This document shows positions 3,113 to 58,516 of a DNA stretch of 64,000 bases, in pieces. Location of the stretch: IMG/VR virus record IMGVR_UViG_3300026521_000571; one strand, 5' to 3'. The position numbers were made by a program, and so were the translations under genes. The notes under the pieces are model-generated. The model worked only from the letters and a program-made list of their open reading frames with translations, made no database searches and was not told the origin of the DNA. Positions within the stretch are counted from its first letter, which is position 1. Every line of letters begins with the position of its first letter. The stretch is from a virus. Its lineage: Duplodnaviria > Heunggongvirae > Uroviricota > Caudoviricetes.

Positions 3113-3156
3113 TCTAGAGATAGGCTTAAGCCTATCTCTAGACCCTCCTGTGCCTC
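3113..3156 (+). terminator. Perfect 13-bp stem-loop (tctagagataggc-ttaa-gcctatctctaga) followed by the CCCTCCTGTGCC motif; putative terminator or processing site
   Basis: Seen directly; same hairpin-plus-CCCTyCyGT(G)CC architecture at 5078..5117 and 58472..58516. Confidence 0.6.
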
Positions 3157-15748: not shown

Positions 15749-15989
15749 ATACTCCTCCTTGAGTAGTTAATTCATCAACATTAATCTGATTAATGAGAAT
15801 ATTATTAAGTATCAAATTCAATGCCTTTTTAAATTTACGGTTAGACATCTTTTTTAGAAATTCATCTGTAAGAAGAATTTCTAAAATAAAAAGATTAATA
15901 TCTTTATTAATATCTATACCGTATCGGCCAAAAAAGATATTAATATAATCTTTTCTTTTCTTTTCTCTCCGATCATAATCGATTTTCAT
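15729..15989 (-). CDS. Hypothetical protein (86 aa)
   Basis: ORF at the head of a minus-strand operon. Confidence 0.45.
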   Translation of the reverse strand: MKIDYDRREKKRKDYINIFFGRYGIDINKDINLFILEILLTDEFLKKMSNRKFKKALNLILNNILINQINVDELTTQGGVFDYEIF

Positions 15990-16020
15990 ATTTACTCCTT
16001 TATTTTAAAATAAAAAATAA

Positions 16021-16300
16021 AAATTAGCCTATTTTAGACAACCTTAAAGAACTTACCCGATGTAAGTTCAATATAATTATTTATATACTAAATTAAGTAA
16101 TTCTAATTATTTAGAAAATGCAAAAGCTAAATGTTTACATCGGCTTGAGTGCTTTAGCACTCGAAGCAATTAAATTAGAAAATGATTTATTTATAATAAT
16201 CATTTCTTGAAGACACTATGTTGGTTTATAAACCAACATAGTGTCGAATTATTTAGAAAATACAAAAGCTAAATGTTTACATCGGCTTGAGTTATAAATA
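16021..16300. promoter_or_regulatory. Divergent intergenic hub holding a ~70-bp promoter-like element (16021..16089), two copies of the GTTTACA-containing motif (16121..16150 and 16262..16290), hairpin gagtgct-tt-agcactc, and a ~100-bp element with a 34-bp perfect palindrome gacactatgttggtttataaaccaacatagtgtc (16212..16245)
   Basis: Seen directly; elements repeated at 24317..24388, 41811..41890 and 42162..42260. Confidence 0.7.
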
Positions 16301-22936: not shown

Positions 22937-23446
22937 CTATCTTATTTTTAATTCAACCAAGGCTTCGTCTATCGCTTTACCCAATAGATTCTGTCCAAGC
23001 CATTTGGATTTATCAAAGATCCTATTATCAGACCAATGTAATCCAATCCCCCATACTTTATCATACGGGCTTGCTTCTACAAAGAGCCTTTCTCCAATTT
23101 GCTTCTCAAAAGCTTCAGAGAATTCTTTATCTTTAAAAATCTCACGAAATTTAAAAATATTGCCAGCTTTTACAATTTGGAATTTATGTTCATCCCATAT
23201 CGCTTCATCAAAGCCTTTGACTCTTCTACCGTACTCTTTTATCCTCGCTTGATTTGAGGACTCAAGAATTTTCTTAGCCATCTGATGATCTCCAGATAAC
23301 TGAGCTTTATGATACATCATATATTGCTCAGCTGAATTGAACTCAATACCGGAGGCCTCGAAACTAAATTTGAACCATTGTGAAAATGGCCCATTCCAGA
23401 AGAAAGCATACTCGATACTTCTTCTATTCACCAGTTGCAATTCCAT
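22937..23446 (-). CDS. NADAR (YbiA/DUF1768) family protein
   Basis: FFWNGPFSQWF ... FNSAEQYMMYHKA ... GRRVKGFDEAIWDE ... IVKAGNIFKF ... FVEASPYDKVWGIGL match the conserved NADAR blocks. Confidence 0.85.
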   Translation of the reverse strand: MELQLVNRRSIEYAFFWNGPFSQWFKFSFEASGIEFNSAEQYMMYHKAQLSGDHQMAKKILESSNQARIKEYGRRVKGFDEAIWDEHKFQIVKAGNIFKFREIFKDKEFSEAFEKQIGERLFVEASPYDKVWGIGLHWSDNRIFDKSKWLGQNLLGKAIDEALVELKIR

Positions 23447-23833
23447 TTATTTCTCCAGACGATATATTTCGAGAGTATTCTCATTATATGAAGAATTATT
23501 AATTTTACGCGAACCAAAACCATGCATTGATAATTTTTTATCAATTATTTTTTGAAATTCAGGATAATAATCAAAGATTACTATACTACTTTTATCCAAT
23601 AAATTATTGATAATTTTTATTATCTCAAGTTCGAGATTTGAAATTACAGAGAATGTTTTTGGAGTAATGTTATACTTATTAAAATATTCTCTAGCCGATT
23701 TTGGTGAAGGTAAAAACGGGAATCTTGCATCTTTATCATAGATGCAAATCTGAATATGATATGCACCCAAACAGTTACTAACGATCACCCGATAATCAGT
23801 ATTATCTATATTAACTGATATACTATCTTTCAT
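23447..23833 (-). CDS. Hypothetical protein (128 aa)
   Basis: ORF with AAGGAAA RBS, immediately downstream (minus sense) of repeat copy 1. Confidence 0.5.
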   Translation of the reverse strand: MKDSISVNIDNTDYRVIVSNCLGAYHIQICIYDKDARFPFLPSPKSAREYFNKYNITPKTFSVISNLELEIIKIINNLLDKSSIVIFDYYPEFQKIIDKKLSMHGFGSRKINNSSYNENTLEIYRLEK

Positions 23834-23859
23834 TTTAATTTCCTTCTTATTTTATTTAT

Positions 23860-24044
23860 TTTTATTTTATTTTAAAAAAAATAGATGATTTATAACCCGC
23901 TGTCTCTGCGGCGTATGTTTAGTACCCAAGACTAACGCACATTGGCTGTTAGTGAATACCAGAGCATACATACAGTTTTTGATAACTAAAGTTACTGTAT
24001 AAACTTTAGCCAAGCACCCGACAACTTAATGCCGGACCTGGAAG
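23860..24044. repeat. Copy 1 of a ~185-bp element, 100% identical to 48916..49100 (ttttattttattttaaaaaaaatagatgatttataacccgctgtctctgcggcg ... gccggacctggaag)
   Basis: Base-by-base comparison of the two loci; GC-richer than surrounding DNA; internal hairpins such as ctaaagtt-actgtataa-actttag. Confidence 0.9.
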
Positions 24045-24060
24045 TTATTAATAGATCGGC

Positions 24061-24291
24061 TTAGGCGTTACCCAGCTCCAATCTATTAACAACATATTCT
24101 TTATCTTCGGAGATCTCGAAGACCTCCGAGACTCCGAGATAATCTTCCAGCAAGTGTACACTTGCTGGAAGAACAGAAGATTCGGCGCAAGCTTGCGCCG
24201 AATCTTCATCTCTGAAATGGCCTACGATAGACGCCTCAGCATCTATCACAACGTAGAGCTTAAGCTCTACGTGGCCCAATAGTCTTTTCAT
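24061..24291 (-). CDS. Small acidic protein (76 aa) in a GC-rich island; the ORF contains three perfect palindromes of 22..30 bp
   Basis: AAGGAG Shine-Dalgarno 6 nt before the ATG; codon usage far more GC-rich than its neighbours; the palindromes raise the alternative of a structured RNA or DNA element. Confidence 0.45.
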   Translation of the reverse strand: MKRLLGHVELKLYVVIDAEASIVGHFRDEDSAQACAESSVLPASVHLLEDYLGVSEVFEISEDKEYVVNRLELGNA

Positions 24292-24316
24292 CTTTTCTCC
24301 TTTATTCAGATTGATG

Positions 24317-24388
24317 AAAAATTAGCCTGTTGTAGGCAACATAAAGAACCTACCCGATGTAAGTTCAATAATATTATTTATATACTCA
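24317..24388. promoter_or_regulatory. Conserved ~70-bp promoter-like element (aaattagcctgttgtaggcaacataaagaacctacccgatgtaagttcaataatattatttatatact)
   Basis: Near-identical copies at 16021..16089 and 41811..41890, partial at 50264..50310 and 40836..40890; TATAAATA on the minus strand. Confidence 0.6.
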
Positions 24389-24441
24389 TTAGAGTAATTC
24401 TAAAAAACAAAGGGTTCAAAGTATTTTTAAAAGGATTAAAA

Positions 24442-25002
24442 ATGTCAACACAAAACAGCGCAGACACAGTATATGAATCAGTTCAAAATTATGTACGTCA
24501 TGATTTAAGTGAAAGTTTTACACCTTGGAGTGCTAAAGAACTCGAAGAAAAGAATAAAGAAGTCCGTTATAAATTTAGCTCAAGTAGTCTAAAAAAACTA
24601 GAAGGATTACATCCTGCTTTAGTGGATATTATTTTCGAGGTAGCCAACTCTATAGATTTGACAATAGTTTACGGATTAAGAACAGCTGAGGAGCAACATA
24701 AGTTATATCTAGCTGGAAGAAGTTCTAAAGATGGATATATTAAAAAATCTAGACATCAAAGTGGAAAAGCCGTTGATATATTGCCTCGACCAAGAGGTGT
24801 AAATATGTATAACTCAAAAGATAGAGATAATCCAACACGTTGGGCTTATTTTACAGGATTCTTCCAAGCAACAGCATTGGCTCTTGGATACGAAACTAGA
24901 GTTGGTTGGAAATGGAGAACAGATCCAATGGAAGTTCTAAAAAGACCTCTGAGAGAAAATAGCCTAGTTGATCCAAATCATTTCGAGATTTATATTAGGT
25001 AA
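24442..25002 (+). CDS. Peptidase M15 family endolysin (VanY / L-alanyl-D-glutamate peptidase-like)
   Basis: LRTAEEQHKLYLAG ... SRHQSGKAVDI metal-binding and catalytic motifs typical of M15 peptidoglycan hydrolases. Confidence 0.8.
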   Translation: MSTQNSADTVYESVQNYVRHDLSESFTPWSAKELEEKNKEVRYKFSSSSLKKLEGLHPALVDIIFEVANSIDLTIVYGLRTAEEQHKLYLAGRSSKDGYIKKSRHQSGKAVDILPRPRGVNMYNSKDRDNPTRWAYFTGFFQATALALGYETRVGWKWRTDPMEVLKRPLRENSLVDPNHFEIYIR

Positions 25003-25013
25003 AAGGAAACCGG

Positions 25014-25505
25014 GTGCAAATAAATTTACAAGAAAACATAACAGTAGTAAATAAAATTGATAATATTATAGAAGAAGCGATCAGGGGAAAAATTTCCCCT
25101 GAAATGTGGAGACAATCAGCATATGCTGATCTTACACCAGAAGAGTTACAATACGCTAAAGAAAATCTAGTCAAGAATAAATTAAAAAGTCAAATAAAAC
25201 CAGCAGCCTGGACAATGGGTATTGGAGCAGCTGCTTCATTAGCTACACATAATCCTTTACCATTAATGGGTGCAGCTGGACTTAATACTGGACGAATCAT
25301 CGGAACTGGTTTATTTGCAAAGAAGGTCCAGAAAGAAATAGATCCAGATAGATTAAAAGAATATAAACAAGCTCGTAAGGAAGTCGATAAAATTTATGCG
25401 ACGGACCCCGATGAATTGAAAGTATTTGATGGTGATAAAAAACAACAACAAGCCTTTTTAAATATGCATCGAAATAATACTTTAAAACAGATAGGTGTAT
25501 ATTAA
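25014..25505 (+). CDS. Membrane protein (163 aa), GTG start; candidate holin or spanin-like lysis partner
   Basis: AAGGAAA RBS before GTG; Gly-rich TM segment AAWTMGIGAAASLATHNPLPLMGAAGL; directly downstream of the endolysin. Confidence 0.45.
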   Translation: MQINLQENITVVNKIDNIIEEAIRGKISPEMWRQSAYADLTPEELQYAKENLVKNKLKSQIKPAAWTMGIGAAASLATHNPLPLMGAAGLNTGRIIGTGLFAKKVQKEIDPDRLKEYKQARKEVDKIYATDPDELKVFDGDKKQQQAFLNMHRNNTLKQIGVY

Positions 25506-30168: not shown

Positions 30169-31983
30169 ATGGCTCAATTGACCCACAATTTAAAAGGTTC
30201 CGGAGTTTTTGACAAACACGGAAATGAAATAGATATCGCGAGAGCTTATCTAATGTGTAAAATGTCACCGTTATTTTTTATAGAGAATTTCGTTATTATT
30301 GAGGTTGCTGGAGGTAAAATACCTATTAAAGAATCTGATTTATGGTATAGCACTCCGAAATATAGACAATTAATTCGAGGATTGCAAGAGTTTGACGCCG
30401 TTTCGTTTATGGCATCACGCCAGCACGGGAAAACTCAAACTGTGGCAGAATATTTGCTCTGGGCAATAATTTTCCACCCAGGTCTATTAATTGAGTACGT
30501 CACCTTAGATTCCAAGCGTGCTACTGACTTTATTAAACGTATAAAATTCATGCTCAAAGAATTACCTGATTGGCTTCGCGTTGATTTCAAAGGCAAATCA
30601 GAAAAAGTTACTTTTATTGAGCTTGAAAATGGCGCTAGAATTAACTCAAATTATGTTAGTGGTAGTATTGATCCTGATCGTCTTGGGCGTGGTATGTCAG
30701 CACCAATCATATACATTGATGAAACAGCTTTTATCCCAAAAATGGATATTGTCTGGGTAGCGATGCAACCAGCTATTTCAGCTGCAAGTAGATTTGCCAA
30801 GAAAAATGGATATCCAAATGGAATCATTTATACAACAACCCCAAATGGAGCTGGTGTAAATTTCTTTTATAATGTTTGGACCAGAGGCTGGGATAGCTCA
30901 GAATTATTCGAAGGCGATTCAATAAAAATTAGAGAAGACTGGCGTGATGTATTAGATTCAGACGATAATAAAAATAACTTCGTTAGGTTTAAAATTCACT
31001 GGTCTGAGACTAATAAAGATGAGAAATGGTATAAACAGCAAATTAAAGAATTGAACTTTAATATGAGAAAGGTTTCTCAAGAACTCGACCTGGTATTTCT
31101 TGGATCAAATAATGCTGTTTTCGACGATAGTATTCTTGAAGTTTTTACACCAAAAACAGTCAAAAGTGAACTTACATTGGCTTATGGAGAGAAGTTTAAT
31201 TTATTCGAAGATCTTGATCCAGAGAAAAAATACCTACTTGGGGTTGATACAGCAGCTTCAACTGCAGCTAAAAGCGACTATAGTGCTATGGTTTTGGTTG
31301 AAGCAGAGACTGGTCTTCAAGTTGGTGAATGGCATGGAAAATTCTCGATCGTAAAAAGATTTGCGCTGATGGTTAAATCAACGATCAGAGGACTTCATGA
31401 TATTCATGGATTGACAGATGATAGTTTAACAGTAATAATAGAAAGAAATAGTTTTGGATTAGGTGTTGTGGAAGATATTCTTTATTCGGATGAAGATTTC
31501 GATTATCCAGGTTATATGTACTGGACACAATTAAAACATGATAAAGTTCCTGGAATGCAGACTGACGCCAAACGTCGTGAGAAAATGTTTAATTTACTAT
31601 TGAGTATAATTAATGAAAATCCAAAATTAGCTCAAGGTGTTTTATTACAAGAAGAACTTCGAAATTTAGAGCAGAAACCGAATGGAAGATTTGAGGCGAC
31701 GACCGGAGCACATGATGACGTCGTGCTTTCATACAACTTCTGTCTTTTCGTCCGCGACGAGATGATCAAAGATGGATTAATTACACTAGATGGGAGTTTC
31801 AATAAACTCAATGCTGAACGTATAAATTATTATTTAGATGTAAGTATGAATAGTGTTGATCTCTTGAAAGATCGAAGAAAAAATAAAGAAGAATTAGAGA
31901 TAATCATTATAGATAACGATCATGAAGAGCGGCGCCAAGAAATGGACCAATTTGATTTCTGTAATAATATTATTATGCTTTAG
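30169..31983 (+). CDS. terL: Terminase large subunit (T4 gp17-like ATPase plus nuclease)
   Basis: Walker A SRQHGKTQT; Walker B IIYIDETAF; RNaseH-like nuclease motifs LGVDTAASTA and AHDDVVLSYNF; 604 aa. Confidence 0.9.
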   Translation: MAQLTHNLKGSGVFDKHGNEIDIARAYLMCKMSPLFFIENFVIIEVAGGKIPIKESDLWYSTPKYRQLIRGLQEFDAVSFMASRQHGKTQTVAEYLLWAIIFHPGLLIEYVTLDSKRATDFIKRIKFMLKELPDWLRVDFKGKSEKVTFIELENGARINSNYVSGSIDPDRLGRGMSAPIIYIDETAFIPKMDIVWVAMQPAISAASRFAKKNGYPNGIIYTTTPNGAGVNFFYNVWTRGWDSSELFEGDSIKIREDWRDVLDSDDNKNNFVRFKIHWSETNKDEKWYKQQIKELNFNMRKVSQELDLVFLGSNNAVFDDSILEVFTPKTVKSELTLAYGEKFNLFEDLDPEKKYLLGVDTAASTAAKSDYSAMVLVEAETGLQVGEWHGKFSIVKRFALMVKSTIRGLHDIHGLTDDSLTVIIERNSFGLGVVEDILYSDEDFDYPGYMYWTQLKHDKVPGMQTDAKRREKMFNLLLSIINENPKLAQGVLLQEELRNLEQKPNGRFEATTGAHDDVVLSYNFCLFVRDEMIKDGLITLDGSFNKLNAERINYYLDVSMNSVDLLKDRRKNKEELEIIIIDNDHEERRQEMDQFDFCNNIIML

Positions 31984-32032
31984 TGTTTCTAAATACTACT
32001 ATATAAAATTTAAATTAAAAAGGTTTTATTTT

Positions 32033-33715
32033 ATGGAAAACGATATGTTAGAAAAGTACGATAAATTTATTAAAAAATATAGTTCATTAGGAATAATAAA
32101 TTTTAAAGGGATTCGAGGGAAATCAAAAGCGAATAAAAATCAAAAAAAATTAATACATGAAGCGGAAGATGAATTGTGGAAGCTGACAGATTTTGCACCT
32201 GAAAATTACACCACTAAAGATAGAATGCAATTGATACGTGCCAAAATAACTTCTGAAAATTTTAAATGCCCAGTGTGTTCTAAACCCAGAATTAAATCAA
32301 ATGGGATGAATAAATTTTCAATTACTTGTGGTAAAAAAGATAAAGAACATGTAGAATATGCAAAAAAAGTTTTAAGCGATAGATTAAGAAAACCTAAAAA
32401 ATGTCCAGTTTGCGGGATAATGCATAATAATCGAAGTAAAGCCCAACTATGTGGTCTGATTGATGATGAGCATAAACATCATGCTATATCCTACCAGCAA
32501 TCAAAATATAAAAACACATTAATGGAAAAATATGGTGTCGAAAATGTCTCACAATTGGAAACTACTAAAGAAAAAAAGAAGAAAAAATTTCTAGAAAAAT
32601 ATGGTGTTGAAAACCCATCTCAATTGCATTTTAATCTAGATAATTTTAAAAATCTGAATAAAGAATTTATAGAAAATAATTTTATTATTGATGGCAAATA
32701 TGTTGATTTTGAAAAAATGGAGGAATATCTTGGTTGCTCAATTGTTAAAGTAAAATCAGTTCTTAAAGAGTTTGGTATAAAATATAAAAGACGTATCGGA
32801 GTGAGTAAACCTGAAAAAGAAATTTTAGATTTCATTAAAACAATAGATCCAGATGTTAGAGTTATTATGAATTCAAAGACCATTATTCCGCCTAAAGAAT
32901 TGGATTTATATCTACCTGATTATAATCTAGCTATTGAATACAATGGCTTGATGTTCCATAGCCAAGGTGTAAGTAAACACCGTATTTTCAATACTCCTCT
33001 AAGAAATCGTAATGAATTTTTAATAAAGACTAAAGTTTGTGAAAAAAAAGGAATACAGCTTTTACATATCAATGAAAATGAATGGTTAGATGATAAATTA
33101 AATATAATATGGAAATCAGTAATTAGAAATAAATTAAGAAAGAATACAATAAGTATAGGTGCTAGAAAATGTTTTCTTAGAAAACTAGTAACAGATGAAG
33201 ATCTAAAATTAAGCGCTAATTTTTTTTATGAAAACCATCTGCAAGGTGCAGGTGCTTTGGGTTCAATAAGGTATGGTTTATTTTATGAAGGCGAATTAAT
33301 ATCATGTATGACATTTGGTAAGACTAGATTTAGAAGAGGAGCATATGAATTAATAAGATTTGCTAATAAAATAAATTATAGTGTTCCAGGAGCGGCTAGT
33401 AAACTTTTAAAAGCATTCAGACAAGACCATAGCACAATTATTGTGAGTTATGCCAATCGCCGATGGTCTGATGGTAATTTATATAAAACACTTGGATTTA
33501 AATTAGAAGGAATTTCGAGTCCAAATTACTATTATTTTCATCAAAAAAATAAATTTAAGCTATGGCATAGAGCTAGCTTCCAGAAACATAAGCTTAAAGA
33601 TAAACTTAAAGTTTTTGATCCAAAGCTTACTGAAGCTGAGAATATGTTCAATAACGGCTTCCGTAGAATATTCGATGCAGGCAATTATGTCTTCATCTTA
33701 GAGGAGAAGGGTTAG
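32033..33715 (+). CDS. Paralog of 26884..30072: short-repeat version with the same C-terminal nuclease-like domain and tail
   Basis: Zn-ribbon-like CPVCS ... TCGKKDKEH and CPVCG ... CG; two EKYGVEN repeat units; LDLYLPDYNLAIEYNGLMFHSQG identical to the paralog; 3' ~130 bp about 95% identical at DNA level; start chosen at ATG 32033 to avoid overlapping terL. Confidence 0.7.
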   Translation: MENDMLEKYDKFIKKYSSLGIINFKGIRGKSKANKNQKKLIHEAEDELWKLTDFAPENYTTKDRMQLIRAKITSENFKCPVCSKPRIKSNGMNKFSITCGKKDKEHVEYAKKVLSDRLRKPKKCPVCGIMHNNRSKAQLCGLIDDEHKHHAISYQQSKYKNTLMEKYGVENVSQLETTKEKKKKKFLEKYGVENPSQLHFNLDNFKNLNKEFIENNFIIDGKYVDFEKMEEYLGCSIVKVKSVLKEFGIKYKRRIGVSKPEKEILDFIKTIDPDVRVIMNSKTIIPPKELDLYLPDYNLAIEYNGLMFHSQGVSKHRIFNTPLRNRNEFLIKTKVCEKKGIQLLHINENEWLDDKLNIIWKSVIRNKLRKNTISIGARKCFLRKLVTDEDLKLSANFFYENHLQGAGALGSIRYGLFYEGELISCMTFGKTRFRRGAYELIRFANKINYSVPGAASKLLKAFRQDHSTIIVSYANRRWSDGNLYKTLGFKLEGISSPNYYYFHQKNKFKLWHRASFQKHKLKDKLKVFDPKLTEAENMFNNGFRRIFDAGNYVFILEEKG

Positions 33716-40330: not shown

Positions 40331-40818
40331 TTAAGATTCCCGAAGAAGTCTTTAGATGTCTGGCGCAAAAATATATTTACACCAACATCAGTAACCTCAT
40401 GAAGTAGTTTATCATTTACTTCAAAGCACTTCAAGAACTTCGCAACCTTATGTAGGTTGATATCGAAGTCAGTGTCTGTTGTTGAGCGACGAGCGACTGG
40501 ATCGCGATGTTTTGAGTGATCCTTCCCAGCTTCAGTATCACTCAATTTTATCTTAGTCTTACAATTATCTCCATGATAAAGATAACAAGCATATTTAATT
40601 ATCCAACCTCGATGCATTCCGAAGTCGAATTTAAAAAGCATGCTTTTAGCTTCATTCTCAGAAGCATCCTCAGTGGGTATATAAATACCCGCGAATGGAA
40701 ACCACTCACCTTTTTTACCAGCGGAACCCGTGCTTTTATACATCGGCACAAGTTTTTTACCCACTTGTACCAGAGCGATTTGACGTCGCCCGTATAATAC
40801 TACCCCAACAATTTTCAT
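40327..40818 (-). CDS. Hypothetical protein (163 aa), GC-richer codon usage
   Basis: ORF; composition similar to the adjacent MYG1-like gene. Confidence 0.5.
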   Translation of the reverse strand: MKIVGVVLYGRRQIALVQVGKKLVPMYKSTGSAGKKGEWFPFAGIYIPTEDASENEAKSMLFKFDFGMHRGWIIKYACYLYHGDNCKTKIKLSDTEAGKDHSKHRDPVARRSTTDTDFDINLHKVAKFLKCFEVNDKLLHEVTDVGVNIFLRQTSKDFFGNLK

Positions 40819-40913
40819 CGTTTCTCCTTCAAATAAAAAAAATAAATTAGCCTATTTTAGGCACCTCTAAAGGGTATTTATAAAAGCGCCCCCCGATTGG
40901 CGCTTTATGAAAT

Positions 40914-41750
40914 CTAGACCCCTTCAAGGATGAGATTATCGAGATCCCAATCCTCTTTAGACCACACTGCAAAGAAGCCGTTCGCGTGAACGAACTTAGC
41001 TCCTTTACTTTTTTTAGTGATTACAAGGTGATCTGTGTCCACAGTCACTTTGATCTCTTGGGTTTGTGGGTCGTGGAATATCGACCCTACCACACCTTCG
41101 TGGTAGGCCTGGATATCTTTAAGGCTGACAAACTCACCGACCTCCACAAAAGCCCAATTCCCAACTTTGAGTGGACGAGCTGCTTTTGCTCTCCCCTCAA
41201 AGATTTTCTCTTTTTCAGATCTAGAAGCTGCAGCTGCAGCCTCTAACTCACCAAAGATTTTACCAGCGGCCGGCGAGAAGATTTCACGGATAATTTTCTC
41301 GGCGAAATTCAAGGCCTTCGAGAAGGCCACCTCCTGATCGATGCCCTGGATATCCAGGGCATTTAGATCCCCTAGATACCCTAAATATCGATCCCATGTA
41401 TTATTTGGATCGTAGTTGACGCGAGTATCCCTCGCGTCAACTGCCTTAACTAGGTCAGCCATAACCTCGTTATCATCATCGGTTCCCCATAAATATTCGG
41501 CAACTAGGCCGAATGCGCTTCGACCATATTGCTCATCATCCTTTTGAAAATGATGGTGATCAAATCTAAAAGCAGCCGGATTATAAACACCACCGACATC
41601 TACCACGATATCCGCGGTTTCAATTATCTCATGATTACGAGATCTTACTATCTCGTAATCATGACCAGCAGCTCTAAGAGCAGCTATAGCAAATACTTCG
41701 TCCGCATGGAAAATTCCATTATGAGTTATTAAAGTTTTCATTATATTCAC
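40914..41750 (-). CDS. MYG1 / UPF0160 family metal-dependent hydrolase-like protein
   Basis: N-terminal THNGIFHADEVFA motif characteristic of MYG1/UPF0160; His-rich FDHHHF; GC content visibly higher than genome average. Confidence 0.7.
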   Translation of the reverse strand: MNIMKTLITHNGIFHADEVFAIAALRAAGHDYEIVRSRNHEIIETADIVVDVGGVYNPAAFRFDHHHFQKDDEQYGRSAFGLVAEYLWGTDDDNEVMADLVKAVDARDTRVNYDPNNTWDRYLGYLGDLNALDIQGIDQEVAFSKALNFAEKIIREIFSPAAGKIFGELEAAAAASRSEKEKIFEGRAKAARPLKVGNWAFVEVGEFVSLKDIQAYHEGVVGSIFHDPQTQEIKVTVDTDHLVITKKSKGAKFVHANGFFAVWSKEDWDLDNLILEGV

Positions 41751-41759
41751 CTTATAAGA

Positions 41760-42365
41760 TTACACCCAATGAAAAGGGCTGCAGCATTACCTGCACTATA
41801 ATATGTCTATTATTGACAACTATAAAGAACCTACCCGATGTAAGTTCAATAATATTATTTATATACTAACTGAAGTAATTCTAAAATGGTTTCAATAGAT
41901 TATGTTTTACAAAAGCCAAATGTTTACATCGGCTTGAGTGCGAGTTAACTCGCACTCTTTGAAATAAATTATTTTATGTTTTACAAAAGCCAAATGTTTA
42001 AACCTATTCCAGTTATGTTGGAACATAACTCTTTAAAAAGTTTAAACTTTTTAAAGACAGATGAACTTGGGTTTAAACCCAAGTTCATAACTCTAGTCAA
42101 TTTTTAATTGACTAGATAAAGGAAAATGATTAAAATCATTTTCCGAACTCTTTGAAATAAAATTAGAAAATGATTTATTTATAATAATCATTTTCTTGAA
42201 GACACTATGTTGGTTTATAAACCAACATAGTGTCGAATTATTTAGAAAATACAAAAGCCAAAACGTCCACAACATTTAGAGTTGATTATTACTATTATAT
42301 AAAAATATATTAGCAGTGCTTTAATCATTTAGCATAAAGACCTGACAATATTAAAAGGAAATAAA
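41760..42365. promoter_or_regulatory. 600-bp non-coding divergent hub packed with perfect palindromes and copies of all intergenic repeat families
   Basis: Promoter-like element 41811..41890; GTTTACA motif plus 26-bp palindrome agagtgcgagttaactcgcactct (41935..41961); inverted copy of the window-start element (41975..42040); palindromes aaaagtttaaactttt, gaacttgggtttaaacccaagttc, ctagtcaattttt-aattgactag, ggaaaatgatt-aa-aatcattttcc; ~100-bp element with 34-bp palindrome (42162..42260). Confidence 0.8.
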
Positions 42366-48158: not shown

Positions 48159-48893
48159 TCATATTGCATCATTATTTAAAAACCCAAAAAGAGTATCTCT
48201 TAGGCGGCTAGGTGCCTCAACAATACTTTTTTTATCATCATCAGCTGCCTGTTTTAAACAACCAGCATCTATAAAATTTTGTGTGCTTGATTCAAGTTTC
48301 TCCAAATATTTTCCCATTTTTAATAGTTCAATATTTTTATCAACCTCATAATCTGGCCCAGCCGCTTGTAAAATACCAGCTCTAAAAGAAAGTCTAGAAA
48401 ATCTTTCAATCCATGAAGATAGTCTAATATTTAACACTCGACATTGAGCATCATAATTAGACTGACTTTCTTTAGGTATTACATTTTTATTTAGATTATA
48501 AATCCTTTTGCCAGCTCCAGAATTTGGATCTGTGTAATCCTTACATTCATTCATTAATAGTACGGTTTTTAATGAATGAAAAACAAGAAACGAGTTTTTA
48601 TTAACAGCAATTGAATCATCTTGAGTTATATATAACTCATCTTCAATTGATTTACATGTTTTCTCTGGGAGTCCATTTCCCGGCTCCATTACTGCAGCCA
48701 CACCCAAATAGCTTAATTGGTCGTATTTCATACCCTCTATAGATTGGATATAAAAATCCCAAATAACCCTCTGGCCTTTATCTGAAATTTTATAATTTAG
48801 AGAATCGTCCGACTTTGCTTCAATCGAAGCACCAATTACGATTGCAATAGCCATCATCAATCCCAATACTAAATCTTTTGTATATTTACTCAT
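48159..48893 (-). CDS. Secreted protein (244 aa) with signal peptide
   Basis: N-terminal LVLGLMMAIAIVIGASIEA signal-like segment; AAGGAAA RBS. Confidence 0.55.
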   Translation of the reverse strand: MSKYTKDLVLGLMMAIAIVIGASIEAKSDDSLNYKISDKGQRVIWDFYIQSIEGMKYDQLSYLGVAAVMEPGNGLPEKTCKSIEDELYITQDDSIAVNKNSFLVFHSLKTVLLMNECKDYTDPNSGAGKRIYNLNKNVIPKESQSNYDAQCRVLNIRLSSWIERFSRLSFRAGILQAAGPDYEVDKNIELLKMGKYLEKLESSTQNFIDAGCLKQAADDDKKSIVEAPSRLRDTLFGFLNNDAI

Positions 48894-48915
48894 TACAATT
48901 TCCTTTTTAATTTTA

Positions 48916-49100
48916 TTTTATTTTATTTTAAAAAAAATAGATGATTTATAACCCGCTGTCTCTGCGGCGTATGTTTAGTACCCAAGACTAACGCACATTG
49001 GCTGTTAGTGAATACCAGAGCATACATACAGTTTTTGATAACTAAAGTTACTGTATAAACTTTAGCCAAGCACCCGACAACTTAATGCCGGACCTGGAAG
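48916..49100. repeat. Copy 2 of the ~185-bp element, 100% identical to 23860..24044
   Basis: Base-by-base identity. Confidence 0.9.
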
Positions 49101-49255
49101 GTTAATCTTTTATTGACACCTCTAACTATTTTCCTTTCCGATCCATATCCCGCTCGGTTGGGTAGAAATATCCCTTACACGGTTGACGACGCCAATTTCA
49201 TTATCTATAGCTTACGCTATCTCCTTATGAAATTAACGTCTGGCAATTGCTGTCC

Positions 49256-49603
49256 TCAGACTCTGAAGAAACCAGCTTTCGCCGTAACAACTCTCTTTTC
49301 AGAAAGTTTAGTCCATCCGTTCTTTGTAGCTCTAAGACCACTCTGAACAGGTGAAACACCTTCCTGACAGAAAGTTGTTACATGAAGAACAGTCCCTGAC
49401 CCTTGATGAGTCAGGCGTTCTCCATTTGGTAATTCTACCTCAACGATATCGCATGCGACATCGTTATCTTGGTATTTACCAACGACGAAAAGCTTTACTT
49501 CAGTTCCTTCCGGAACAGGCAACTTGCACTTTCCAGGAGCGAACTCCCAAGTGCAATGCAACCCATTTTCCAGAAAGAAAGCTGAGTATATTGCTTTTGC
49601 CAT
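49256..49603 (-). CDS. Small protein (115 aa) in a GC-rich island with foreign codon usage
   Basis: Very strong Shine-Dalgarno (AAAGGAGGATAA then ATG); GC-rich codons; no recognised motif. Confidence 0.55.
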   Translation of the reverse strand: MAKAIYSAFFLENGLHCTWEFAPGKCKLPVPEGTEVKLFVVGKYQDNDVACDIVEVELPNGERLTHQGSGTVLHVTTFCQEGVSPVQSGLRATKNGWTKLSEKRVVTAKAGFFRV

Positions 49604-50350
49604 TTATCCTCCTTTCTGGGTAATGACTTAGGAGACATCACCACCCGAAGATAAGATTTTAGCCCATATCCTCTTTTAGGACATTTACCGATATTGTGGT
49701 TTAGAGGACCAAGTCGACCTTGGACGCCCACACGCTCGGTTAACACGCATCGCAGACTACTCACCTCAATTGGAGGCTTCTTTGTGTTTTACACATTGTC
49801 CCTACGACGACATCAGCAACCAGTTTAACCTACTACTGGAAAGAAATAATTCTACTAAAACATCCAATGATATCATAGTAGAATTATTATATTATACACG
49901 TACTCGAGACGAATCTCGAGATTATAACGCCTGCTGGCCAACAGGTTATCCCTTTTGATGCTTTTCACATCAGGCGGACAGTCTAAACTCTCCAACTTAT
50001 ATAGTTATTAATTCCCATATAAGTAGTATTTTGCCGAAATCCGAAGATACGACATGTTTTATGTATATTAAATACTAGAATATACAACCATTATTTAAAG
50101 TTCTAGGGGAACCCGCACAATATAATTAGACTTTTTATCAGACTATCTTTGACTAATGTCCTTTCGATAATCTTCAATACTAATCTAATTGTATGAATTG
50201 CACTAGAGATAGCATACACTTATCTCCTAAAAATACTTCAGAGCAATAAATTACTCCTTGTACTTTCAATAATATTATTTATATACTTCAAGAAGTTATT
50301 CTAAAATAATAAAATGTCCAAAACAAACATTAATACATAGAGGAGTTCAA

Positions 50351-58465: not shown

Positions 58466-58471
58466 TTATTT

Positions 58472-58516
58472 GGAGGTTGAGTGCTTAAGCACTCAACCTC
58501 CAACCCTTCCGTGCCC
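58472..58516 (+). terminator. Perfect 13-bp stem-loop (ggaggttgagtgc-ttaa-gcactcaacctcc) followed by AACCCTTCCGTGCCC
   Basis: Third member of the hairpin-plus-CCCTyCyGTGCC family. Confidence 0.6.

Follow-up and report, generated by a model that had tools for sequence, protein, structure and literature searches.

The question raised by the locus described here is why a short open reading frame (ORF) of a DNA phage should carry several long perfect palindromes, and what such a sequence encodes. The locus lies in a stretch of 64,000 nucleotides (IMG/VR record IMGVR_UViG_3300026521_000571; GC content 0.313), called the window below, which comes from a large tailed phage rich in AT. A preliminary description of this DNA had noted three perfect palindromes of 22, 30 and 28 bp within a minus-strand ORF and had proposed that the locus could be a structured RNA with three stem-loops, a set of dimeric-protein operators or recombination sites, or a protein gene under dual constraint. 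Comparison of four alleles of this ORF, which we call ORF76 (24061-24291, minus strand, 76 amino acids), showed that the stems in ORF76 are kept as stems by coordinated changes of their two arms, within what is, judging from the way its sequence evolves, a genuine small protein gene under purifying selection.

Palindromes and stems within ORF76

All three palindromes are present on the minus strand and have no spacer between their arms. P1 (24251-24272, codons 7 to 14) is 22 bp long, as had been noted, whereas the other two are longer than described: P2 (24176-24207; GAAGATTCGGCGCAAG followed directly by CTTGCGCCGAATCTTC) is a perfect palindrome of 32 bp instead of 30, and P3 (24143-24172; TCTTCCAGCAAGTGT followed directly by ACACTTGCTGGAAGA) is one of 30 bp instead of 28, extended to 32 bp in the L004 allele. 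The gagatctc core reported near them was found at 24110-24117 (GAGATCTC). The palindromes do fall inside the ORF, which is preceded by the ribosome-binding site (RBS) AAGGAG (24297-24302, minus strand) 5 nt before the ATG, and the GC content of 0.459 for ORF76 against 0.313 for the window bears out the description of the place as a GC-rich island.

The claim that such palindromes are improbable by chance held up. Mononucleotide shuffles of the whole 64-kb window contained about 0.1 palindromes with arms of at least 11 nt, and in 1000 permutations of the synonymous codons of ORF76 itself the longest arm was mostly 3 to 5 nt. Since synonymous permutations almost never restore long arms, the palindromes are not explained by the protein sequence alone. 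The minimum free energy (MFE) of ORF76 was -107.7 kcal/mol, against -67 ± 5 kcal/mol in the synonymous-codon permutations (z from -7.7 to -8.7). P1 reads VELKLYV on both strands because it is codon-aligned, in ORF76 on the minus strand and in the ORF 24154-24282 on the plus strand.

ORF76 was compared in four alleles, those of the window and of contigs L002, L003 and L004, at nucleotide identities of 70-88% (12-30% divergence). The three homologs are non-identical (87%, 79% and 77% amino acid identity), and all lie on short contigs of one ENA metagenome. RNAalifold, run on the four alleles, gave five local helices within the ORF. A further helix spans the stop codon, so that P1, P2 and P3 are part of a chain of six, as helices 1, 3 and 4, respectively. 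The helix spans cover 185 of the 231 nt of ORF76 (80%). The three additional helices are also on the minus strand. Helix 2 (24223-24250) has a stem of 12 bp and a loop of 4 nt, with G.U pairs in the window allele; it is imperfect there and is a perfect inverted repeat with arms of 10 to 11 bp in L002 and L004. Helix 5 (24098-24137) is an imperfect hairpin around the core at 24110-24117, and helix 6 (24044-24093) is a stem of 16 bp with the stop codon in its loop, both with G.U pairs on the sense strand.

The results of the covariation analysis showed that pairing is maintained while the paired bases change. In the five helices within the ORF, 96.9% of the cells were in standard pairs, and 15 pairs (18 cells) were changed on both sides, against 0 to 3 when the partners were slid by 1 to 3 columns; the observed values of pairing and double change were reached by none of 500 shuffles. 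The paired columns varied as often as the unpaired ones (46 of 128 and 40 of 100 columns, respectively), and it is therefore complementarity that is conserved and not the sequence. Ten of the 18 double changes are transversion pairs, for which a G.U intermediate is impossible, and four adjacent pairs (90-93/108-111) were changed together in L004.

These changes can be followed from helix to helix. In P1, a C-G pair of the window allele is T-A in the other alleles, and CG...CG is replaced by AT...AT (V/I). Helix 2 has changes on both sides in 3 pairs. Six pairs were changed on both sides in P2, for example from TCG...CGA to TCT...AGA, and in L003 and L004 this helix is a largely different stem, with arms of 13 to 15 bp and a non-palindromic loop of 4 to 6 nt. 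The compensatory changes of P3 include the replacements P>Q (CCA...TGG to CAA...TTG) and P>R, and helix 6 has a compensatory change in L003. Pairing was thus kept at the cost of amino acids (P>Q, P>R, V/I and E>G). In L003 and L004 the stems persist even though the self-complementary centres of P1 to P3 have broken down there.

The protein was conserved in the same alleles. The frame is open in all four of them (76 or 77 amino acids, no stops), and the sole difference in length is an in-frame insertion of 3 nt in L004. The pairwise ratio of nonsynonymous to synonymous substitution (dN/dS) ranged from 0.20 to 0.26, the variable columns numbered 24, 16 and 46 at codon positions 1, 2 and 3, respectively, and both the AAGGAG and the ATG are conserved. 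The preliminary description had suggested asking whether homologs conserve the amino acids or the palindromes; both are conserved, and some of the compensations replace amino acids. Its idea of a protein gene under dual constraint is upheld by the low dN/dS together with compensatory double changes, some of them non-synonymous. Of the structured RNA with three stem-loops, the conserved and sense-favoured structure stands, with six stems instead of three and a position inside a predicted mRNA.

The product of ORF76 is acidic (pI 4.5). AlphaFold, given the alignment of four rows, predicted a compact β-β-β-α-β-β-β domain with a mean predicted local distance difference test score (pLDDT) of 78.8 (above 87 for residues 11 to 50) and a predicted template modelling score (pTM) of 0.55. 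The centres of P1 and helix 2 map to the turns between strands 1 and 2 and strands 2 and 3 of this model, a match that may be coincidental. A profile search of 1.84 billion representatives returned only the ORF76 protein itself and a spurious match of 15 residues, and word-index searches, with the single sequence and then with the alignment, again found just those four proteins. With no further member among these representatives, the ORF76 family is therefore an orphan. Searches for the P1-core pattern in viral contigs, and for a pattern of the downstream flank (the 3' module described below) in viral contigs and genome contigs, gave no further allele.

We then compared the two strands. The sense strand folded better than the antisense strand by 5 to 15 kcal/mol in all four alleles, and for helix 6 the values were -23.5 kcal/mol and -15.0 kcal/mol, respectively. 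When the helices were defined symmetrically for both strands, the non-Watson-Crick pairs were sense-strand G.T in 14 cases and A.C in 2. P1 to P3 are perfectly Watson-Crick, with zero spacer and no G.U pairs; their self-complementary centres are unneeded by an RNA hairpin and point to a DNA-level origin of these three palindromes.

The proposal of dimeric-protein operators or recombination sites was not supported by the comparison of alleles. The half-sites differ between alleles and yet remain complementary, and AAGCTT and the other central hexamers are not conserved in L003 and L004, where the centres are lost. The suggested match to restriction or recombinase sites fared no better: the centres GTAC, AAGCTT, CTTAAG and AGATCT are palindromic simply because they lie in the middle of palindromes, and the alleles do not conserve them.

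Inverted repeats across the window and the lineage

The excess of inverted repeats is genome-wide and lineage-wide and not local to ORF76, which sets aside the view of the locus as an isolated island. In the window, palindromes with arms of at least 10 nt numbered 15, against about 0.3 expected, and perfect inverted repeats with arms of at least 9 nt and spacers of up to 12 nt numbered 61, against about 7.6 expected (about 8-fold). The zero-spacer class was the largest among these repeats (19 against 0.8 expected). They were found both within long genes and between genes, for example at 442-471, 3113-3142, 16212-16245, 42201-42234 and 58470-58503. After correction for GC content, the most over-structured sites of the window were ORF76 and then an intergenic array at about 41900-42320, with five palindromes in a row in non-coding DNA at 41936-42234.

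A second GC-rich island (49100-49960, minus strand) forms a chain of hairpins over 901 nt (MFE -333.8, z -10). Its ORF (49256-49603, minus strand, 115 amino acids, RBS AAGGAGG) had a structure z of -9.1 and encodes a protein of an uncharacterised family with eight homologs. The homologous genes were over-structured in L025 and L029 (z -5.7 and -6.0, respectively), both rich in perfect inverted repeats, but not in L026 and L028 (z -0.3 and -2.3, respectively), which are contigs without such repeats. As over-structuring was found only in repeat-rich contigs, the excess tracks the genome and not the protein family.

The same tendency was seen in a GC-rich MYG1-like gene (40914-41750, minus strand; N-terminal MYG1-exonuclease domain, E 2.4e-24), which contains several long hairpins and had structure z values of -5.1 and -3.2, whereas those of AT-rich neighbour genes ranged from +0.8 to -2.9. 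Its perfect palindrome of 22 bp (41341-41362) is unchanged in L017, a contig of a relative that is about 92% identical, and its hairpin GTTGACGCGAG...CTCGCGTCAAC shows a compensatory change from T-A to C-G in L017; this is the one compensatory pair of the gene, in a comparison of two sequences only with the structure chosen by the program. Three palindromes are unchanged in L017 despite diverged flanks, and the one at 41936 is symmetrically shortened there to GAGTGC-TAAA-GCACTC.

Two further kinds of site were observed outside genes. The blocks at 41900-42320 and 16100-16300, which lie between divergent units, contain palindrome arrays and the repeated motif TACAAAAGCCAAATGTTTACATCGGCTTGAGT, and an identical palindrome of 34 bp (GACACTATGTTGGTTTATAAACCAACATAGTGTC) occurs at 16212 and 42201; by their sequence these blocks look like arrays of the promoter-early stem-loop (PeSL) type, with promoters and stem-loops. 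At 3113-3154 and 58470-58515, different long palindromes (30 and 34 bp, respectively) stand just 3' of plus-strand genes, and one motif, as CCCTCCTGTGCC or CCCTTCCGTGCC, comes after both of them. These sites may be a 3'-end or terminator signal that has no T-run.

Origin of the stems and rival explanations

Template switching has been documented as a source of perfect stems, which it can make, or mend and so maintain, in one event (Monttinen and Loytynoja 2022, PMC8794818; Lavi et al. 2018, PMC5941160), and it can give rise to multi-nucleotide changes and to clustered replacements within genes (Abraham and Hazkani-Covo 2021, PMC8604942). We consider that it probably, although by no means certainly, generated the stems of ORF76. 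During replication or repair, the nascent strand would fold back or switch to the complementary arm and then copy that arm. One snap-back event would create a spacer-less perfect inverted repeat, and the same arm-to-arm copying would carry a change over from one arm into its partner. The fold-back intermediate would be stabilised in GC-rich DNA, a possible reason for the stronger effect on GC-rich genes, and the stems that are harmless to the protein would persist. The zero-spacer stems, the transversion pairs and the changes of adjacent pairs match the signatures of template switching, and for this reason we read it as the generator.

The observations resemble quasi-palindrome mutagenesis as in the model of Ripley, in the excess and conservation of perfect inverted repeats, in multi-base "compensatory" changes that seem simultaneous, and in the homogenisation of arms in coding genes with clustered amino acid replacements. 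They differ from the cases of the template-switch studies, which are isolated stems in rRNA, bacterial genomes and yeast genes, in that six stems tile ORF76, the arms reach 16 bp and are spacer-less, and the habit is that of a whole phage lineage. The reading that we favour overall, and to which we give somewhat better than even chances, is that of a real gene with stems made by template switching, in a process common to the lineage, and retained in the sense transcript.

Several points weigh against this reading. Selection on an RNA or DNA hairpin together with ordinary point mutation leads to the same end pattern. The alleles number just four, appear to be mosaic and, in three cases, come from a single metagenome; the order of events is therefore not recoverable and the double changes are not independent. 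The G.U asymmetry of ORF76 comes mostly from helix 2, and in a noisy test the near-perfect repeats of the whole window did not lean towards sense-strand G.U (20 against 16), which argues against a general RNA-level explanation. On the side of the protein, scans of ORF76 against Pfam and PHROGs gave no family, a Foldseek search of the PDB with the ORF76 model gave no match at E ≤ 0.001, and the matches in BFVD were only partial and weak (E ≥ 0.06), all to small phage proteins that are themselves uncharacterised.

It is a separate matter whether the hairpins themselves act at the RNA level or are merely tolerated, and we would put such a role forward only tentatively, as somewhat less probable than its opposite. 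The stems of ORF76 might, for example, benefit the sense transcript by shielding it from single-strand-specific RNases, or by controlling its processing or translation, and the tRNA-repair-type Pnkp/ligase of the phage hints at host defences that target RNA. The main rival explanation denies the stems any such role: they would be a neutral by-product of a high rate of template-switch mutation in the lineage, with the protein alone under selection. This would agree with a repeat excess that is mostly spacer-less and genome-wide, in coding and non-coding DNA alike, with an island-2 family that is laden with hairpins only in repeat-rich contigs, with the lack of sense-strand bias in the near-perfect repeats of the window, and with the self-complementary loops of P1 to P3, which RNA hairpins do not require. 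It is harder to reconcile with the survival of all six stems in four alleles that differ by 12-30%, with a pairing that is maintained despite amino acid replacements, and with mismatches that favour sense G.U by 14 to 2 in a sequence whose sense strand folds better in every allele. Moreover, the AT-rich neighbours are little over-structured, and mutation would need a preference for GC. We regard a purely neutral origin as rather unlikely, although it deserves more weight than any of the explanations that follow.

A role at the DNA level, with cruciform or hairpin signals (in replication, recombination or packaging, for example) or dimeric-protein sites that the ORF tolerates, appears improbable. 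P1 to P3 would suit it, being perfectly Watson-Crick, spacer-less and without G.U, and long palindromes of this kind are also present in regulatory blocks between genes (examples are the array at 41936-42234 and the 34-bp palindrome with its copies at 16212 and 42201); but the conservation of arm complementarity without that of arm sequence excludes a sequence-specific dimeric binder, the central hexamers are altered or lost in L003 and L004, helices 2, 5 and 6 use G.T pairs that are mismatched in duplex or antisense DNA, and a Pfam scan of the eight neighbouring ORFs found no recombinase or integrase. Still less probable is a non-coding structured RNA in which the 76-codon ORF is incidental. 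The extent of the helices, the strongly negative z of the MFE and the strong covariation are what such an RNA would show, and palindromes automatically open matching frames on both strands (24154-24282 on the plus strand and 24048-24209 on the minus strand). The low dN/dS, the codon-position bias, the conserved AAGGAG-ATG, the single change of length by an in-frame 3 nt and the confidently predicted core all speak for the protein, however, and Rfam gave no match at gathering or E-value thresholds. With Rfam 15, no match in the window reached the gathering threshold, and the best matches by E-value in 23780-24460 were far under the gathering scores (miRNA-precursor models, and preQ1-II with 24 bits against a cut-off of 47 bits). 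An assembly or amplification artefact made of fold-back chimeras is hardly credible. One such join was seen: L003 (1-76) begins with 38 nt of the neighbouring endolysin sequence, folded back so that they run in the opposite orientation to the adjoining copy. This join could be a real snap-back product, but misassembly at a repeat is its likeliest source. On the other hand, two assemblies made independently of each other (JGI and ENA MEGAHIT) gave the four different alleles, in all of which the palindromes are in frame and between which the differences are coordinated; further palindromes of the window are also present in L017, itself an independent contig.

The locus opens to direct test the long-standing question of whether the "compensatory" substitutions of stems result from selection on two separate mutations or from one templated event. 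ORF76 is an unusually clean natural case, in a DNA phage, of two readable constraints, with about 80% of a coding sequence that is also conserved hairpin, and the course of compensatory change in it can be followed from one allele to the next, down to the transversion pairs and the blocks of neighbouring pairs. The excess of spacer-less perfect repeats throughout the lineage, with its concentration in swappable GC-rich genes, suggests either an unusual mutational habit of the replication machinery of this phage or an unrecognised use of hairpins in phage gene expression or in the evasion of defences. Small ORFs rich in palindromes in phage metagenomes should not be written off as non-coding. 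A bolder version, which we think unlikely, is that ORF76 arose from, or was in large part reassembled from, self-copied palindromes in an array similar to the non-coding one at 41936-42234. Its hairpins and those of the other GC-rich genes would then be a structural "armour" that makes selected transcripts or DNA segments resistant to nucleases of host or phage, and snap-back would be the routine sequence generator of the lineage. If true, it would be a natural case of palindrome-driven gene birth, with a structural code laid over coding sequence throughout the lineage.

Cassette arrangement, known systems and genome setting

The DNA specific to ORF76 (24044-24296) is bracketed by repeated modules. 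The 3' module (23830-24044, minus strand) is 215 bp long, is 96% identical to 48890-49100 and reaches the RBS of the next gene (23447-23833). It contains three hairpins, a stem and then a T-run downstream, with a modest predicted fold (z -2.5), and it had no Rfam match. The end of helix 6 coincides exactly with the junction between cassette and 3' module. The 5' module (24303-24448, minus strand) contains a sigma-70-like site (TTGACA-17-AATACT at 24448-24420, with 10 of 12 matches to a generic consensus), TATAAATA at 24375-24382 (minus strand) and a small hairpin at 24346-24366. An upstream stretch (about 24285-24420) resembles 15983-16106, 41817-41886, 50259-50322 and 40812-40863, all in minus-strand units. 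TATAAATA, the -10 consensus of T4 late promoters, has 34 sites in the window, against 16 ± 4 expected, and is within or adjoining every stretch that resembles the 5' module (the sites include 16078, 41856, 50276 and 40875).

The identity between alleles was 88-95% in the 5' flank and 95-98% in the 3' flank, against 70-88% in the ORF, and the 3' module is more conserved between phage variants than the neighbouring genes. Island 2 and the ORF76 cassette have both flank modules in common. At the start of contig L017 stand the final 16 nt of a gene of the ORF76 type, followed by the module and then by a homolog of the gene 48159-48893; the window has island 2 where L017 has the end of the ORF76-type gene, and the junction in L017 is possibly a mis-join across the 215-bp repeat. 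The 17-mer GGTCCGGCATTAAGTTG of the 3' module matched 1 viral and 19 metagenome contigs, of which L017 alone is related. The other matches (L005-L024 except L017) are due to chance, their count being about that predicted for a collection of this size. In the unrelated contig L005 (4114-4130), GGTCCGGCATTAAGTTG forms a terminator-like hairpin after a gene.

PeSL mobile regulatory cassettes and modular shuffling have been described in T4-type phages (Arbiol et al. 2010, PMC2839356; Comeau et al. 2014, PMC4122927). The ORF76 locus is like them, as judged from the cassette arrangement alone, in that a variable orphan ORF lies between composite promoter/stem-loop modules that are repeated through the genome. 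L017, subject to the possible mis-join, attaches the same cassette end to a different downstream gene, as in PeSL shuffling and as recombination inside the modules would produce. The modules are longer here (215 bp downstream and about 120 bp upstream), and the hairpins of ORF76 are within the coding sequence whereas PeSL stem-loops are intergenic.

RNA structures are known within the coding sequences of RNA viruses, as in the operator and packaging hairpins of MS2 and Qβ, the picornavirus cis-acting replication element (cre) and the Rev response element (RRE) of the human immunodeficiency virus (HIV). ORF76 shares with these elements purifying selection on the protein together with covarying stems in the ORF. 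However, they belong to RNA genomes, have known ligands and loops of defined sequence, and tolerate G.U, whereas ORF76 belongs to a DNA genome and has three perfect spacer-less palindromes. In-frame palindromic mobile elements, such as the Rickettsia palindromic elements (RPEs) and the GC clusters of the yeast mitochondrial var1 gene, are likewise GC-rich palindromic sequences that are translated in an AT-rich genome. They are multi-copy and of one sequence family, whereas the palindromes of ORF76 differ from each other and are single-copy in the window. The ORF76 locus thus resembles, by analogy, a variant that combines a mechanism like template switching, a setting like that of PeSL cassettes and a dual constraint like that of RNA viruses. 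A literature search found no description of a protein gene of a DNA phage tiled by conserved perfect palindromes.

Other classes were tried and rejected. A multi-copy palindromic element (RPE, GC cluster or miniature inverted-repeat transposable element) was discarded because self-BLAST of 23800-24460 gave repeats of the flank modules only. An integron attC site was discarded because GTTGTTA...TAATAAC in helix 6 has the reversed order compared with RYYYAAC...GTTRRRY, and because the Pfam scan of the eight neighbouring ORFs gave no integrase. P2 was flagged by a terminator consensus scan with the tail TGTTCTTCCA; this tail is weak, differs in L003 and L004 and stands in the middle of the ORF.

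The M15 endolysin gene (24442-25002) directly adjoins the ORF76 locus and is transcribed in the divergent direction. The phage also encodes a T4-type large terminase (30169-31983), both subunits of ribonucleotide reductase, a Pnkp-RNA ligase fusion, a papain-like protease and a NADAR protein. A blastn search of 23400-25100 against the INPHARED phage collection gave no match, no close relative was found in IMG/VR with the endolysin and terminase as queries, and a tRNA search found none. Farther along the window, the segment 26884-30072 (minus strand) encodes a protein of 1062 amino acids with many tandem DUF7487 repeats (ERYGV...YSQTDE), and a second DUF7487 protein (31922-33715) adjoins the terminase; judging by their repeats, both look like homing-endonuclease-associated repeat proteins.

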